A DNA stretch of 64,000 nucleotides from a virus (Duplodnaviria; Caudoviricetes): positions 96,001 to 160,000 of the IMG/VR virus record IMGVR_UViG_3300006056_000001; one strand, written 5' to 3'. Positions 1,050-28,182 of the stretch are shown here, piece by piece. The position numbers were made by a program, and so were the translations under genes. Positions within the stretch are counted from its first letter, which is position 1, and the number at the start of each line of letters is the position of its first letter. The notes beneath the pieces were generated by a model. That model was not told where the DNA came from, made no database searches, and saw nothing but the letters and a program-made list of their open reading frames with translations.

Positions 1050-1071
1050 GTGCCCGTAGCTCAGTTGGTAG
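1050..1071 (+). pseudogene. Orphan 5' fragment of a tRNA (acceptor strand to D-loop)
   Basis: GTGCCCG TA GCTC AGTTGGTAG, ending at the stop codon of the minus-strand HNH gene. Confidence 0.65.
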
Positions 1072-1072
1072 G

Positions 1073-1603
1073 TTAGATATAAGTTTTATTTAACCTGCCA
1101 TGTTCTTCTCTATGGCAGTTAGCACAAAGAAGAATACACTTATCTAATTCTATTTTACCTTCTATAGATAAAGGTCTTTTAGAAAATTTAGACATCTCAA
1201 AATCTTTTTCATTTTTGTTTTTATGATGAAATTCTAAAGCACCATTAAATTTATTATAACCACATATTTCACATTTACCTCCTTTATAATCTAATGCCTC
1301 TTGTTTATATTTTCTTAATCTATCAATAGCATTTCTATTGATACATTTTTTACACCAAGAACCTTGTCTTGGATGTTTTCCAGATTGAAAGTAATACTCA
1401 CCTTTAGATTTTAATATATTACAATTAGGACAAATTTTTTCTCCTATTTTATTTACTTTTTCTATATTTGATTCATTTTTCTTTATTTTATATTTAACTA
1501 AATAATATCTTATACTTGTTTGTGATTTATTTAGTTTTTTTCCTATATCTCTTTGAGATAAGTCTTGATTTATATATAAATCAATAAGTTGTTCTTTGTT
1601 CAT
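1073..1603 (-). CDS. HNH endonuclease with N-terminal HTH and zinc ribbon
   Basis: CEICGY...ALEFHH...KCILLCANCHREEH; N-terminal LSQRDIGKKLNKSQTSIRYYL. Confidence 0.9.
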   Translation of the reverse strand: MNKEQLIDLYINQDLSQRDIGKKLNKSQTSIRYYLVKYKIKKNESNIEKVNKIGEKICPNCNILKSKGEYYFQSGKHPRQGSWCKKCINRNAIDRLRKYKQEALDYKGGKCEICGYNKFNGALEFHHKNKNEKDFEMSKFSKRPLSIEGKIELDKCILLCANCHREEHGRLNKTYI

Positions 1604-19936: not shown

Positions 19937-20150
19937 AGGTTCAGGCTTGGTGTGATCGTTATATTGTGATGTGATCGTTTCGAGTGTATAGGTTTCTAGG
20001 TCCAAAACAAGAGTAGACACCAGCTTTAAGACATTACCGGGTAGGGGGTTCGACTCCCCTGGGGGCATCCATACTGCCCCTCAAGGTCGTACTTAGGTAT
20101 TCTTCTCGTTAAAATAGCTGTGTAGTTGAAATTTTTGATACTGACCTTGG
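19937..20150 (+). ncRNA. Candidate ncRNA with permuted tRNA-like domain
   Basis: GGGGG TTCGACT CCCCT, then GGGGGCA-TCCATAC-TGCCCCT, enclosed by ACAC-CAGCT-TTAA/TTAA-AGCTG-TGT. Confidence 0.6.
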
Positions 20151-20199
20151 TAAATGCAAACCGCAAATTTGCAATTTTCTCTTGAAAAGAAAAACAACC

Positions 20200-20244
20200 A
20201 AGAAACCCCAGGGAGGTTGGATAATTCTTCCCTGGGGGTTCTTT
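20200..20244 (+). terminator. Strong hairpin / probable terminator
   Basis: AGAAACCCCAGGGAGG...CTTCCCTGGGGGTTCTTT. Confidence 0.6.
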
Positions 20245-20261
20245 ATCTTAAACACCGAAAG

Positions 20262-20897
20262 ATGATCTCACTTCAGCAAAGACTACCAGATAACAATAAG
20301 TATTTCTTTGCTTGCTCAGGAGGCGTGGACAGCATGTCTGCTCTCCATTGGATGAAACAGGGAGGAAGATTACCTTATGCAATTATTCACGTGCATCACA
20401 ATACTGGTGATTACGCTGACCGTGCCTTGGAATTTGTTAAAAGAACATATACTGAGTATTGTTTTGACCTTTTCGTCAAAAATGTGGAAGGTGTTCCGCC
20501 CCCAGGAGAATCAAAAGAAGCCTGGTGGAGAGGAGAACGATATAAACTCTTCCAAGAAGTCTTAGATGAGACTGGAAAAGATTATCCTATTGTTTTAGCT
20601 CACAATCTTGATGATTGTGTAGAACAGTATATTATGAGAACTTGTATCCGTCTTTCTAAAAATAAGCTTATCTCGTATAAAGGTCCTGCTAATACTATTA
20701 GGCCTTTTCTTACTTGGAAAAAGAGTGAAATTATTGATTATGCAAAGCGCAATAATATTGATTGGATTGAAGATCCTTCTAATACTAATCCTTGCTTTTT
20801 AAGAAACAATATTAGACATAATCTAGTACCTTTGGTAGTAAAGATGAATCCTGGGATTCATTCGCAAGTTAGAAAAATGATTTTGGATATACAATGA
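20262..20897 (+). CDS. tilS: tRNA(Ile)-lysidine synthetase
   Basis: PP-loop SGGVDS, E...R..RY, AHNLDD..E, IRPFL, WIEDPSN....FLRN.IRH. Confidence 0.92.
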   Translation: MISLQQRLPDNNKYFFACSGGVDSMSALHWMKQGGRLPYAIIHVHHNTGDYADRALEFVKRTYTEYCFDLFVKNVEGVPPPGESKEAWWRGERYKLFQEVLDETGKDYPIVLAHNLDDCVEQYIMRTCIRLSKNKLISYKGPANTIRPFLTWKKSEIIDYAKRNNIDWIEDPSNTNPCFLRNNIRHNLVPLVVKMNPGIHSQVRKMILDIQ

Positions 20898-21407
20898 ATG
20901 ATCAATTTCTTGATATTGAAGAGCTTAAAGCTCAATTAAGTTCTATAAGAGATTATGAAAAGAACTTAGAAGCTACAATAGGACAAGCAAAAATATTAGA
21001 TAAGTTTATTACTCCAAGATGTTATCATTTAGAATTTGATGAAAACTTTACTCAGTTAATGGAACTATTTAAGAATACTAAACTAATGAAAGAATTTAAT
21101 ATCAATGTAGAATATGATCAGAATCTTGATATTACTGGGGTTTATTTAGATAAAATAAAATTCATGATGGCATATAAGCATCTTAGTTTACAAAATATAT
21201 TTAAAGAGTATTTTAAATTAGCCAAAGAAAACAAGATAGAAATATTATATGGGCCTATTAAAGGATATAAGAACGAAGACGGCAGTGATTACGAAGATTT
21301 CATCATAGACCTTAAATAAGGTCTTGTATCAGGGTATAGCTCAATGGTAGAGTACGTGGTTTGGGGCCAGTTCTCTGTATCCCAAATAATGTAGTCGCAA
21401 AGACTAC

Positions 21408-21776
21408 ATGAAACAATGTAAATACTGCCATAAAAAATACCCAGAAAATCAGTTTGGAATAGCTAAAACTACTTCAACTAAGATCTATAGACGTCAAAAA
21501 TGTAATATATGCTACGCTATTACTAAACGTAAAAACAGACATAAGAAATCTCATTGGTTAGTAGAATACAAGAAAACTTTAAAATGTAGTAATTGTTCTT
21601 ATAATGATTATAGAGGCTTAGATTTTCATCACCCTAATGGCGATAAAGAAATAGATATAGGAACCTCTATATCTAGAAGATCTATAGAAAACACTAAGAA
21701 AGAAATAGATAAATGTATTGTACTTTGTGCATGTTGTCACAGAGAACTACACTATGACGAGCGTTACGGAATATAG
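21408..21776 (+). CDS. HNH endonuclease inside split tRNA-Pro
   Basis: CSNCSY.DYRGLDFHH...EIDKCIVLCACCHRELH. Confidence 0.9.
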   Translation: MKQCKYCHKKYPENQFGIAKTTSTKIYRRQKCNICYAITKRKNRHKKSHWLVEYKKTLKCSNCSYNDYRGLDFHHPNGDKEIDIGTSISRRSIENTKKEIDKCIVLCACCHRELHYDERYGI

Positions 21777-21844
21777 CACAGTTTGGCTAGTGCGTTCGCT
21801 TTGGGAGCGAAAGGTCGAAGGTTCAAATCCTTCTATTCCGACCA
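21767..21844 (+). tRNA. tRNA-Pro(UGG), intact, nested within the insertion
   Basis: CGGAATA/TATTCCG-A-CCA; TTCGC-TTTGGGA-GCGAA. Confidence 0.93.
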
Positions 21845-22183
21845 TTTCATCGTCATGATAAAGTAGAAGGTTCGAGTCCTTCTATCCTGACCAACACAAT
21901 AAAAAGAGGAACTTAAATGAACATTACTGATGTTATGAATGGTATAGTTAGTAATAAAATTGATATTGAAAAATGTCAGCAACTTATTCATCAATTTAAT
22001 AAATTAAATAAAACTAATTATTTTATTAGAGTATTAAATGTTAATAATACTGAATTAGTAGGAACATCAGATTTTAATACAAATAGAATAAATATTACAT
22101 TAGTTAATGCTATTCCTGATAAAAGTGATATTGGATATTCTAGTGGATATATTACTGCATATGATATAGGATAAATAAAATAT

Positions 22184-22256
22184 AGCAGGGAGAATCGTTA
22201 TTCAAGAAAGTCTCATAAGCTTTCCTCCGAGGGTTAGACTCCCTCCCCTGCTTCCA
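22184..22256 (+). tRNA. Atypical tRNA-Met(CAU) with reduced D arm
   Basis: AGCAGGG/CCCTGCT-T-CCA; AAAGT-CTCATAA-GCTTT; 4-nt D loop; T loop TTAGACT. Confidence 0.7.
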
Positions 22257-22322
22257 ATAGTCAGTTAATACTAGGCAACTGCTTATCGCCGGATCCTGAC
22301 TTTAAATAAAATCCGCATTCAC

Positions 22323-22403
22323 TGCGGGATCGACAAGTCTGGTTTAAGTCAAAGGGCTCATAATCCTTCAGTTTCGTGGGTTCAAATCCCACTCCCGCTT
22401 CCA
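22323..22403 (+). tRNA. tRNA-fMet(CAU)-like
   Basis: Unpaired 1:72, GGG at 29-31, loop CTCATAA. Confidence 0.85.
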
Positions 22404-22526
22404 TTTACGCCTGGGTTGCTCCAGGACCAGTCTTGGGGTTAGACGATCCATCGACACTGGAAAGGTGAGTAATCCTTTCGGTTGTATCGAACCGGGTGGT
22501 TGTAAAAGGAAAGCCCTCTCATTTAT

Positions 22527-22603
22527 GCTCCGTTCGTCTAGTGGTCTAGGATGCGAGTTTTTCAAGCTCGAAGACGTGGGTTCGACCCCCACACGGAGTA
22601 CCA
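22527..22603 (+). tRNA. tRNA-Glu(UUC)
   Basis: CGAGT-TTTTCAA-GCTCG; GCTCCGT/ACGGAGT-A-CCA. Confidence 0.9.
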
Positions 22604-22733
22604 TTCATGCTGGCGAAAGGGAAACTGAGTAGCTGGCACCATCTTTAACCTTGTTTAAGGCCGGCTTAAGCCGACCAGATCAATTTGAGAATAAGGCAGA
22701 CCAAGTATAATTGTAGCTTGGTCTTTTCATTTT

Positions 22734-26256: not shown

Positions 26257-26627
26257 ACATAAAAGTAGAAAAAACTAAACTTATTACTGCTCTTAAGCAG
26301 AATAAAGCCAAGCATATTGCTGATTATAAAGAAGCTACTATGAATTGGAAAAAAGAATTAAGGTCTATAGTAGAGTCTGCACATGATTTATTAACAAATA
26401 AACAAGACTATGATTTGTTTCTTGATAGAAAGCATGATATTTTTAGAATAGACTCTCGGCCTACTTCTCATGAAAAAGATTATGATACTGCTATTGAAAT
26501 GTTAGAGTTCTGTTCTGATCAAGAAATTGAGCTAGATATACAACAGTATAATGCTTTTGTTAAAGATCAGTGGACCTGGCGCGCTCATTGGTCCGCAAGT
26601 AATGCTAAGTATCTTAGCCACTCTTAA
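26247..26627 (+). CDS. Conserved phage protein
   Basis: L..NK.KH...Y.EA...PTSHEKDYD.AIEMLE.....IELD...Y..FV.D.W.W pattern. Confidence 0.7.
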   Translation: MELNIKVEKTKLITALKQNKAKHIADYKEATMNWKKELRSIVESAHDLLTNKQDYDLFLDRKHDIFRIDSRPTSHEKDYDTAIEMLEFCSDQEIELDIQQYNAFVKDQWTWRAHWSASNAKYLSHS

Positions 26628-26638
26628 TTAGAGTGTAT

Positions 26639-27079
26639 GGGAGTATAGCATAATTGGTTACTGCACTAGATTGTCGATCTTATTAACTATTGCAATCGTA
26701 TATGATTACATGCCTAGTAAAGATCCAGAAATAAGACGTGCTACTTGGAATAAATGGTATAAGAAAAATAAAGCTATTCATCATAAAAGGTCTAAAGATT
26801 GGACAGATCGTAGAAGAAAAGAATTAAGAATTTTAATAAATAAATATAAAAGCACACATCCTTGTAATAACTGCGGTTTTACAAATCCTGTAGCTTTAGA
26901 TTTTCATCATATAGATGTTTTACAAAAAGATATAGAAGTATCTATAGCTATAAATAGAACTTGGTCAAATAAAAGACTAGAGAAAGAAATAGCTAAATGT
27001 ATAGTTTTATGTTCAAATTGTCATAGAATAGAACATAATAAATAGACAATAATAGGTTCGAGTCCCATTACTCCCGCCA
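26639..27079 (+). tRNA. Split tRNA-Asp(GUC): 5' part 26639-26679, 3' part 27043-27079
   Basis: GGGAGTA pairs with TACTCCC-G-CCA; CTAGA-TTGTCGA-TC|TAG restores the anticodon stem. Confidence 0.82.
26710..27045 (+). CDS. HNH endonuclease inside split tRNA-Asp
   Basis: CNNCGF.NPVALDFHH...EIAKCIVLCSNCHRIEH; ATG at 26710. Confidence 0.9.
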   Translation: MPSKDPEIRRATWNKWYKKNKAIHHKRSKDWTDRRRKELRILINKYKSTHPCNNCGFTNPVALDFHHIDVLQKDIEVSIAINRTWSNKRLEKEIAKCIVLCSNCHRIEHNK

Positions 27080-27087
27080 TTAATCAC

Positions 27088-28182
27088 ATGACTCAAAATT
27101 TATTTATACCTACTAAACTTAAAGTAGGCTACCGAGAAAGAGAAGATACTTTTACAAAAAAACTAGCTTATGTTATTTATTATGATGAGAAGAATGTATT
27201 AAGAAAAGAAACTAGTTGGAAAAGTTGGAGAGATCAAAACATTCCAGATCAAGATATTGATAATGTTCCAACAGAAGGATTTGTATTAAACAAAAAGGTA
27301 GGCGGCTATAAGTCTGACTGGAACTATAGACAGTCATATATTAGAGTATATGATCCTAGAGGTTTTGAATTTGAGATTACACCAGAAAATCTATTATTTA
27401 TATTAAAAGAATCTAATTGTGATAAGGATAAAGGCTTAGAGGGCAAATTTGTTTACTCTTGGCAAGGAACAGAACTAGTACTACTTCCTGTTACTTCACT
27501 TACATATCAAACTTCTACTAAGTATACTTCTATAAGATCTAATAAAATACACAAGAAAGACTTAATTCTTGGTGCATCTTATTTAGATGATCAAGTAGAG
27601 CCTTGTATTTATTTAGGTCTTAATACAGTATATGGAAAAGACTTTTTCTATGGTGGTTCAGCAGGTAGCATGAAACAGCATGTTACTTATTATACTCAAA
27701 CTAAGAAGTATAGTTTTACTAAAGAACACAAGCATTTAAAAGAATTAGTAGACGCTAATATTTCTCCTGATTTTTCAGATTTAATAGATCATTTTGCAAA
27801 TTCTACTCGTGGTTCTCCTATAGAAAGATTAGAACTTAGGCCTATGGAGAACTATTATTATGCATCACATAAACATAATAAAGAACTAAAAAGATACTTT
27901 TGGGCAGAAGCATCTAAGTTAGAAAATACATATGATGTATATTTTAACGAATATGGGGCTACACACAGTTATCATATTAAAATTACTGATAATTCTTTAT
28001 ATACATTTAATGATACTGGGTATGCTACTACTAGACCCGCCATTCCTCCTCAAAAGAATCAACTATTTGCTATTTTGAAAAGTGGAAAGGAGATTATGAT
28101 TGATCTTAGTAATTACAGATTTTATGATATAAATAATCAGTATGATTATGAATTTATACAAGAAACAAAAGAACTAGAGTGA
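27088..28182 (+). CDS. Conserved large-phage hypothetical protein
   Basis: KLAYVIYYDEK..LRKE.SW..WRD...RVYDPRGFEFEIT.ENL motif. Confidence 0.75.
   Translation: MTQNLFIPTKLKVGYREREDTFTKKLAYVIYYDEKNVLRKETSWKSWRDQNIPDQDIDNVPTEGFVLNKKVGGYKSDWNYRQSYIRVYDPRGFEFEITPENLLFILKESNCDKDKGLEGKFVYSWQGTELVLLPVTSLTYQTSTKYTSIRSNKIHKKDLILGASYLDDQVEPCIYLGLNTVYGKDFFYGGSAGSMKQHVTYYTQTKKYSFTKEHKHLKELVDANISPDFSDLIDHFANSTRGSPIERLELRPMENYYYASHKHNKELKRYFWAEASKLENTYDVYFNEYGATHSYHIKITDNSLYTFNDTGYATTRPAIPPQKNQLFAILKSGKEIMIDLSNYRFYDINNQYDYEFIQETKELE

Follow-up and report, generated by a model that had tools for sequence, protein, structure and literature searches.

The window examined here, a stretch of 64,000 nucleotides (nt) comprising bases 96001-160000 of the 189,716-base-pair (bp) IMG/VR virus record IMGVR_UViG_3300006056_000001, contains a gene for proline tRNA with the anticodon UGG whose two halves are separated by a gene for an HNH endonuclease and by a second, complete gene for tRNA-Pro(UGG). 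We regard it as probable that the insert is a mobile cassette, composed of an HNH homing-endonuclease gene and its own tRNA-Pro(UGG), that entered the resident gene as DNA, its point of entry lying between tRNA positions 41 and 42. Most likely, the outer halves are what a cut-and-replace invasion left behind as its scar, and do not make up a tRNA that is spliced. An earlier interpretation of the letters alone (hereafter, the sequence-only reading) had proposed such a tRNA-targeting cassette carrying a tRNA of the same anticodon, side by side with an intron that is spliced by protein or looped out by its terminal helices. The first of these proposals has gained comparative support from a fixed 10-nt overlap between the HNH and tRNA genes, from unrelated flanking sequences and from nested cases in other phages, with the cleavage of tRNA genes being predicted.

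Anatomy of the interrupted tRNA-Pro gene

The components of the locus, all of which lie on the plus strand, are as follows.

21330-21369, plus strand: outer (resident) tRNA-Pro(UGG), 5′ part, positions 1-41; direct reading, with a 24-nt exact match to the tRNA-Pro of contig L089 and a weak, partial Rfam tRNA match of 16.8 bits
21359-21387, plus strand: hairpin 1, in which the outer anticodon loop GUUUGGGG (21359-66) pairs with the leader segment UCCCAAAU (21380-87); computed fold
21389-21410, plus strand: hairpin 2, ATGTAGTC-GCAAA-GACTACAT (21389-96 and 21402-09), over the HNH start codon at 21408-21410; computed fold
21408-21776, plus strand: HNH (His-Me finger) endonuclease gene, 122 amino acids (aa), taken as a free-standing homing endonuclease; phrog_2255 and alignment A1
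21767-21844, plus strand: inner (cassette-borne) tRNA-Pro(UGG); ARAGORN, and an Rfam tRNA match of 69.3 bits
21845-21853, plus strand: spacer forming the right end of the cassette (TTTCATCGT); direct reading, its border with the outer 3′ part being uncertain by a few bases
about 21854-21893, plus strand: outer tRNA-Pro, 3′ part, consisting of CATG (positions 40-43), an A-rich variable region, T arm, acceptor strand, A and CCA; direct reading and comparison with L089

The outer 5′ part is made up of the acceptor strand CAGGGTA, the D arm GCTC/GAGT, the anticodon stem strand CGTGG and the loop TTTGGGG, followed by CCA, which corresponds to positions 39-41. On the far side of the insert, the T arm GAAGG-TTCGAGT-CCTTC (21866-21882) is succeeded by the acceptor strand TATCCTG (21883-89) and by A73 and CCA, which extend to 21893. 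The two acceptor strands pair at all seven positions, one of them as G.T, and the T stem forms GAAGG/CCTTC, which upholds the claim of the sequence-only reading that the outer halves are still able to pair in both stems. A 24-nt stretch of the 5′ part occurs exactly in one other IMG/VR contig, L089, in which an intact tRNA-Pro gene lies within an array of 21 tRNAs and is accompanied by no HNH gene. Because the anticodon stem of that gene reads CGTGG/CCATG, the CATG at 21854-57 of the window is assigned to outer positions 40-43. That the outer gene is split, as had been proposed, is confirmed by the cloverleaf frame and by the match to L089, but the break, formerly placed at about position 40/41, falls after position 41.

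The insert is flanked on either side by the dinucleotide CA (positions 40-41), a duplication that is compatible with the repair of a short staggered cut. The outer 3′ part also has three additional bases (ATA) ahead of the variable loop AAGTA. When CCA is joined to either TG or CG, the product is called tRNA-Pro(tgg) by ARAGORN at its default setting, although its variable loop then measures 8 or 12 nt. At a relaxed threshold, ARAGORN applied to all junction pairs called nearly every join a tRNA, and its calls at that setting are hence uninformative.

The insert itself comprises a 38-nt leader, an open reading frame (ORF) of 122 aa and the complete tRNA-Pro(UGG). The ORF has its own start and stop codons and lies outside any match to an intron family. 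Its product matches phrog_2255, annotated as 'HNH endonuclease' (E = 1.8e-23), and its matches are to HNH families only, with none to GIY-YIG families; no Pfam family was matched at E up to 0.01. All of the invariant residues of the family (C60, C63, H74, H75, C107, C110, H111 and H115, forming the pattern CxxC/HH/CxxCH in alignment A1) are present. The ORF and the inner tRNA overlap by 10 nt, with the HNH stop codon TAG (21774-76) supplying T8, A9 and G10 of the tRNA; the full tRNA-Pro(UGG) that had been noted across this stop codon is borne out by its Rfam score. Identity to the HNH-linked tRNA-Pro of loci L011 and L015 is 83% for the inner tRNA and 72% for the outer tRNA, identity to the unlinked, intact tRNA-Pro of L089 is 82% for the outer tRNA and 74% for the inner tRNA, and the two are 71% alike. 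On the basis of these identities, we conclude that the inner tRNA arrived with the nuclease gene and that the outer tRNA is the resident.

We propose that the nuclease would cut tRNA-Pro genes that lack the cassette, within the region of the anticodon stem and variable loop, and that the break would be repaired by copying the cassette from a donor, leaving the target gene as two dead pieces that are not spliced. Because the cassette brings a tRNA-Pro of its own, one that is presumably not cut by the nuclease, the phage would keep a working proline tRNA. Both breaks in the window, namely that in tRNA-Pro and that in the tRNA-Asp gene described below, lie 11-13 nt upstream of the T-loop box GGTTCGAGTCC, in place of which the inner tRNA carries GGTTCAAATCC. 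This box was considered as the sole target and rejected: it is common to both split tRNAs but is also found in at least six uninterrupted resident tRNAs, and because these carry it too it cannot alone determine the target.

The HNH-tRNA unit in other phages

A profile scan of IMG/VR yielded 80 loci with HNH relatives, and the comparison covers these 80 and a further 49 of at least 538 IMG/VR relatives. At no fewer than 13 other phage loci (L001, L008, L010, L011, L015, L016, L019, L029-L032, L039 and L041), an HNH ORF is situated directly 5′ of a tRNA-Pro gene on the same strand. The overlap between ORF and tRNA is exactly 10 nt at all of these except L010 (15 nt), and at most of them the ORF ends at tRNA positions 8-10. 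One of the loci, L008, belongs to an isolated cyanophage, Synechococcus phage S-CAM3, in which the two genes are annotated as 'HNH endonuclease' and then 'tRNA-Pro-TGG'. Further members of the HNH family abut or overlap genes for tRNA-Thr, -Val, -Gly, -Glu, -Met and -Asn.

The sequences surrounding this gene pair are mosaic. Between L029 and L030, the HNH gene and the tRNA are 100% identical and the 300 nt upstream are unrelated; between L016 and L019, the pair is 98-100% identical and the downstream sequences are unrelated. Given these mosaic flanks and the fixed 10-nt overlap, the HNH gene and its tRNA appear to travel as one unit. The distribution of the unit among relatives is sporadic, as seen both in the mosaic flanks and in the intact outer-type tRNA-Pro of L089, which is without an HNH gene.

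Near each HNH gene, a split-tRNA detector was used that looks for a T arm and acceptor strand downstream and for a matching acceptor strand and D arm upstream. The split tRNA genes compare as follows.

Window, Pro: outer 5′ part Pro-UGG, 1-41; inside, HNH, then tRNA-Pro-UGG; outer 3′ part from 40/42
Window, Asp: outer 5′ part Asp-GUC, 1-41; inside, HNH only; outer 3′ part from 42
L081: outer 5′ part Arg-ACG, 1-38; inside, tRNA-Arg-ACG, then HNH; outer 3′ part 49-76 (39-48 missing)
L120: outer 5′ part Arg-UCU, 1-26; inside, tRNA-Arg-UCU, then HNH; outer 3′ part from the anticodon loop on
L116: outer 5′ part 1-31; inside, tRNA-Met, then HNH; outer 3′ part T arm and acceptor (anticodon loop missing)
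L039: outer 5′ part Pro-GGG, 1-48; inside, HNH, then tRNA-Pro-GGG; outer 3′ part a decayed remnant

A tRNA nested within a tRNA is thus present in the tRNA-Pro of the window and at four other loci (L081, L120, L116 and L039), and in every nested case in which both anticodons can be read (four of four) the inner and outer anticodons are identical. In all six of these split tRNA genes it is an HNH gene that occupies the break, and this suggests that the enzyme may cut tRNA genes lacking the cassette and that the cassette is then copied into the break. Across the split tRNAs the break points span positions 26 to 48, and two of the outer genes, that of L081 without positions 39-48 and that of L116 without an anticodon loop, are beyond restoration by any excision. 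Such varying breaks and missing parts point to the repair of a nuclease cut with variable resection and not to a conserved intron site. A full-text literature search found no description of nested HNH-tRNA cassettes.

Other arrangements of HNH and tRNA genes were also encountered. In L074/L075 (1333-1882), an HNH-relative ORF starts 1 nt past a tRNA-Gly(GCC) and overlaps a tRNA-Gly(UCC) by 15 nt, and in L114, L131/L132 and L140 an HNH-relative ORF is wedged between tRNAs and overlaps the downstream tRNA-Glu or tRNA-Met by 12-15 nt. Orphan 3′ halves of tRNAs, consisting of T arm, acceptor strand and CCA, occur right after the stop codons of HNH relatives in L036 (1801-1832), L130 (from 694) and L148-L151; no matching 5′ half was found within 250 nt upstream of these.

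The window also contains a third HNH paralogue, which is surrounded by tRNA fragments.

1073-1603, minus strand: third HNH paralogue, whose 176 aa include an additional N-terminal region, in a tRNA region among orphan tRNA fragments
1050-1072, plus strand: tRNA 5′ fragment GTGCCCGTAGCTCAGTTGGTAGG beside the third HNH gene
about 1759-1802: orphan tRNA 3′ fragment with a CTTTTAA loop, beyond a 93-nt tRNA(UUU)

The acceptor strands of the fragments flanking this gene do not pair with each other. For the 93-nt tRNA at 1623-1715 the call is tRNA-Lys(UUU), although lysine tRNAs do not usually have a long variable arm such as its GAGGGGTAACCCTCC. The segment at 348-1072 is by eye far richer in G+C than the 34% of the genome as a whole, stops exactly at the tRNA 5′ fragment beside the third HNH gene, and may be foreign DNA.

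Fragments of this kind raise the question of whether the nested gene could be a product of illegitimate recombination, or else of duplication, in a tRNA array that is repetitive, with the HNH gene as a bystander that does not cut tRNA genes. This explanation would accommodate the tendency of tRNA arrays to recombine and the mutually unmatched orphan fragments around the third HNH gene and in L036, and it takes advantage of the fact that cleavage of tRNA genes by the HNH protein is a prediction. It is nevertheless unlikely, as members of the same HNH family are located at the break in six independent split tRNAs, the anticodons agree in all four readable cases, and the fixed HNH/tRNA-Pro overlap and the mosaic flanks imply that the HNH gene and the tRNA move together.

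The split tRNA-Asp gene and the intron alternative

A second tRNA gene in the window is interrupted by an HNH gene, at the same tRNA position as in tRNA-Pro.

26639-26680, plus strand: split tRNA-Asp(GUC), 5′ part, positions 1-41, ending in TCT; split-tRNA detector and ARAGORN on the joined sequence
26710-27045, plus strand: paralogous HNH gene, 111 aa from ATG; alignment with the Pro-linked HNH
27044-27079, plus strand: split tRNA-Asp, 3′ part, consisting of AG, a 6-nt variable loop, T arm (one A.C mismatch), acceptor strand TACTCCC, G and CCA; ARAGORN at its default threshold recognizes the joined halves as tRNA-Asp

The HNH protein encoded within tRNA-Asp is 35% identical to the Pro-linked protein in the alignment (about 45% over the C-terminal half) and is a member of a subfamily in which the N-terminal Cys pairs are missing. 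A42 and G43 of tRNA-Asp come from the TAG stop codon of this HNH gene, and the insert includes no inner tRNA, the ORF occupying all but about 29 nt of it. ARAGORN found no other tRNA-Asp in the whole genome, and it also misses the split copy. We suggest that this paralogue may have acted in the same manner, and at the same position, on the one tRNA-Asp gene that the phage has, without bringing a spare. The tRNA genes of phages are generally dispensable. An attempt to derive the native variable loop of this tRNA-Asp from relatives was abandoned; eight phage tRNA-Asp genes match it in the anticodon arm alone, and no inference is possible from them.

Several observations weigh against invasion by a cassette, and most of them favor a different view, in which the insert is a ribozyme-free intron of an undescribed kind that is excised at position 41/42 with the aid of protein and whose own helices bring together the halves of tRNA-Pro and tRNA-Asp for ligation. 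Both of these outer genes are undecayed, and a single precise excision would restore the full cloverleaf of each. Their inserts occupy the same tRNA position despite an identity of only about 35-45% between the two HNH proteins. In a near-complete set of tRNAs, for 18 amino acids, Asp is represented solely by the split gene, which would be sensible if that gene still worked; the split tRNA-Asp, with its halves nearly intact and the gene otherwise missing, is the strongest point in favor of an intron. A 10-nt complement between the start of the insert (21369-78) and the C-terminal codons of the HNH ORF (21739-48), which the sequence-only reading described as perfect and which is indeed exact, is unusual for the sequence of the window, since shuffling of the 45-nt leader gives as much in only 1% of cases. 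In addition, no close relative of the phage was found, and therefore no empty-site allele that would prove insertion, and the nuclease activity of the HNH protein and its target are predicted only.

The features expected of known introns were nonetheless not detected. Rfam 15 cmscan at E up to 10 gave no match to a group I or group II intron in 20800-22700 or 26300-27400, in agreement with the sequence-only reading, which had seen no such core, and the intron mode of ARAGORN, which covers the anticodon loop only, found nothing. Group I introns interrupt the anticodon loop, whereas here the tRNA is broken in the anticodon stem, past position 41. The last base of the Pro 5′ part is A, where a group I 5′ exon has U, and the joins that restore the stem leave inserts ending in A or T, not in the G of group I introns. 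No match to RtcB (PF01139), RNA ligase (PF09414) or tRNA-intron endonuclease (PF01974) was detected in the 189.7-kilobase phage genome. In single minimum-free-energy folds of shortened precursors, there was no bulge-helix-bulge in the form of two 3-nt bulges around a 4-bp helix. The folds of the Pro and Asp precursors differ from one another, and the inserts have no common boundary motif.

The comparison with relatives is equally difficult to reconcile with an intron. The 10-nt complement has no counterpart in 12 relatives (leader against ORF at 13 loci, the window alone being positive). A conserved long-range helix was rejected as a family feature, as it is found only in the window and the 7-nt match in S-CAM3 is attributable to chance, being reached by 50% of shuffles. 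The inverted repeat ATGACGA/TCGTCAT, to which the sequence-only reading had drawn attention as a bracket around the inner tRNA, does exist, but with 18 inverted repeats of at least 7 nt in 581 nt, itself among them, it is likewise put down to chance. An intron also has to account for an ORF that takes up nearly the entire Asp insert, for restored variable loops of 6, 8 or 12 nt that are atypical for Pro and Asp, for the A.C mismatch in the Asp T stem, and for the related outer genes noted above that have lost essential parts. Moreover, RNase P and 3′ trimming, in maturing the inner tRNA, would cut the outer precursor apart and would leave 5′-phosphate and 3′-OH ends. RtcB is a known bacterial RNA-joining enzyme, and such ends are not its substrates.

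We consequently judge the ribozyme-free intron to be very unlikely. Still more improbable, in our estimation, is the broader proposition that the outer tRNA-Pro and the only tRNA-Asp are both functional and that the HNH cassette constitutes a new class of tRNA intron, relying on an undescribed protein-dependent cut-and-join reaction in a bacterial phage. The sequence-only reading had named random insertion positions and a lack of terminal complementarity in other examples as the outcome that would refute it. What the relatives present are breaks scattered from position 26 to 48 and a terminal complement that is not conserved. By that reading's own standard, the intron, for which no ribozyme core, no phage-encoded splicing enzymes and, in the single folds, no motif resembling a bulge-helix-bulge were detected, is refuted, and the cassette is retained.

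Leader hairpins, genomic setting and related systems

In the leader of the HNH gene, hairpin 2 covers the start codon, and the suggestion that the HNH start is sequestered in a hairpin is accordingly sustained. Hairpins 1 and 2 together have a folding energy of -21.8 kcal/mol (z = -3.7). An ATG at 21389 aligns with the start codon of the relatives, but its next codon is TAG. In 10 relatives the leader has the form TATAAATA-TTTGGGA-(12-14 nt)-TCCCAAA-ATG, in which a homologue of hairpin 1 directly precedes the ATG; TATAAATA we take to be the consensus of a T4-type late promoter. The hairpin that is conserved in relatives is hairpin 1, and not the 10-nt helix that the sequence-only reading had stressed. 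At L039, where the 5′ part of a tRNA-Pro(GGG) stands before the HNH gene, the corresponding pairing is CTGGGGG/CCCCAG, which represents two compensatory changes. A hairpin over the start site, enclosing a late promoter, keeps the gene of the T4 intron endonuclease I-TevI silent until late. By pairing with the anticodon loop of the broken gene and by forming a hairpin over the start codon, the leader of the window's HNH gene would probably block its translation from transcripts that read through the tRNA operon. The leader segment TCCCAAA (21380-21386) is an exact complement of the inner tRNA-Pro's anticodon loop, TTTGGGA (21800-21806), as well, and in a long transcript it could pair with the loop of either tRNA.

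These data leave some room for the view that the outer 5′ half is retained as a regulatory RNA, its anticodon loop serving as the 5′ strand of a hairpin that controls HNH translation, and that only the outer 3′ part is a true scar. The hairpin formed by the anticodon-loop sequence and TCCCAAA is kept before the ATG in 10 relatives, after TATAAATA; L039 has the two compensatory changes, and its 5′ part is intact and its 3′ part decayed; and the stretch in the window folds with the z-score given above. Such a hairpin requires just 7-8 nt of the loop, however, yet the entire 5′ half and the 3′ part as well are intact in the window, which indicates that the event was recent and offers no evidence of selection. 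We hold this view to be a tentative one, somewhat short of even odds, and it adds to the explanation by a mobile cassette and does not replace it.

The virus record has direct terminal repeats and a G+C content of 34%. According to ARAGORN, 24 of the 25 tRNA genes of the genome fall in the window, with ORFs interspersed, and the set covers 18 amino acids and includes one tRNA with the anticodon CUA. This last gene, at G000:C1:62937-63010 and outside the window, is labeled 'Pyl' by ARAGORN; its anticodon reads the amber stop codon, and it could be a suppressor tRNA. Within the tRNA array, just 5′ of the split tRNA-Pro, is a gene for a TilS-like PP-loop ATPase (20154-20897; PF01171, E = 2e-34), from which we infer a bacterial host. 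Its IMG/VR relatives are only 27-28% identical. The array contains three tRNAs with the anticodon CAU, one of which could be a tRNA-Ile2 substrate of the TilS-like protein. A 529-aa protein encoded at 4233-5822 matches phrog_850, 'RNA-binding protein' (E = 6.5e-36). When 20150-22700 was compared by megablast with 50,697 GenBank phages, no match resulted, a 141-aa protein flanking the cassette is without a relative in IMG/VR, and a metagenome scan with the HNH protein revealed distant relatives only and none that is close.

The closest characterized point of comparison is SegB of phages T4 and T6, a free-standing GIY-YIG nuclease encoded in a tRNA cluster, which recognizes a 27-bp site that includes an 11-bp T-arm box, cuts inside the gene for tRNA-Asn in phages lacking segB to leave 2-nt 3′ overhangs, and drives inheritance of the adjacent tRNA region (PMC2330249). 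Homologues of SegB are enriched near phage tRNAs (PMC13096335). Like the HNH gene of the window, segB is a free-standing nuclease gene in a phage tRNA array. SegB is nonetheless a GIY-YIG enzyme, and the HNH enzyme, possibly similar to it in action, is not a member of its family. A further difference is that segB sits between tRNA genes and homes via flanking homology, whereas the HNH gene and its spare tRNA of the same anticodon are found inside the target, both pieces of which are retained.

In the tRNA region of phage T5, the HNH nucleases F-TflI, F-TflII and F-TflIV are reported to cut within tRNA genes of related phages, and they resemble the enzyme of the window in being HNH-family nucleases encoded among phage tRNA genes. 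To our knowledge, they have not been described with either a nested 'tRNA within a tRNA' or a linked spare tRNA. Mobile group I introns occupy the anticodon loops of bacterial and phage tRNAs, and some of them carry homing endonuclease genes. They share with the window a nuclease gene that interrupts a tRNA gene, and the hairpin at the HNH start codon resembles the translational control of T4 intron ORFs; by contrast, the insert in the window has no ribozyme core, lies in the anticodon stem at 41/42, and would have its harm offset by a spare gene and not by splicing. Free-standing endonuclease ORFs of mitochondria, for example that in Allomyces atp6, insert in a gene and bring a replacement for the end that they displace. 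As in the window, a mobile ORF substitutes for the disrupted part of its target and the original piece is left as a pseudogene, but the ORF of the Allomyces type replaces part of a protein gene in frame, whereas the target of the cassette is a tRNA and a whole tRNA gene is supplied. The proposed cassette would belong with the free-standing homing endonucleases of phage tRNA clusters, differing from SegB in its enzyme family, in its location in the target and in its linked spare tRNA.

Homing endonuclease genes that target important genes are known to avoid harm in two ways, either by residing in a self-splicing intron or intein or by sitting beside the target. The window and several unrelated phages appear to present a third way, in which the nuclease gene carries a spare and presumably uncuttable copy of the tRNA that it destroys. 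Such a pairing of an HNH gene with a spare tRNA would be a natural counterpart of the engineered "cleave-and-rescue" gene drives. Annotation is affected too, in that tRNA finders miss split tRNA genes such as the tRNA-Asp of the window. If this interpretation is true, it would explain many of the tRNA fragments and duplicated isoacceptors in phage tRNA arrays, would be a means for tRNA genes to pass between distant phages, and would yield a family of small nucleases with the possible ability to read the sequences of tRNA genes.

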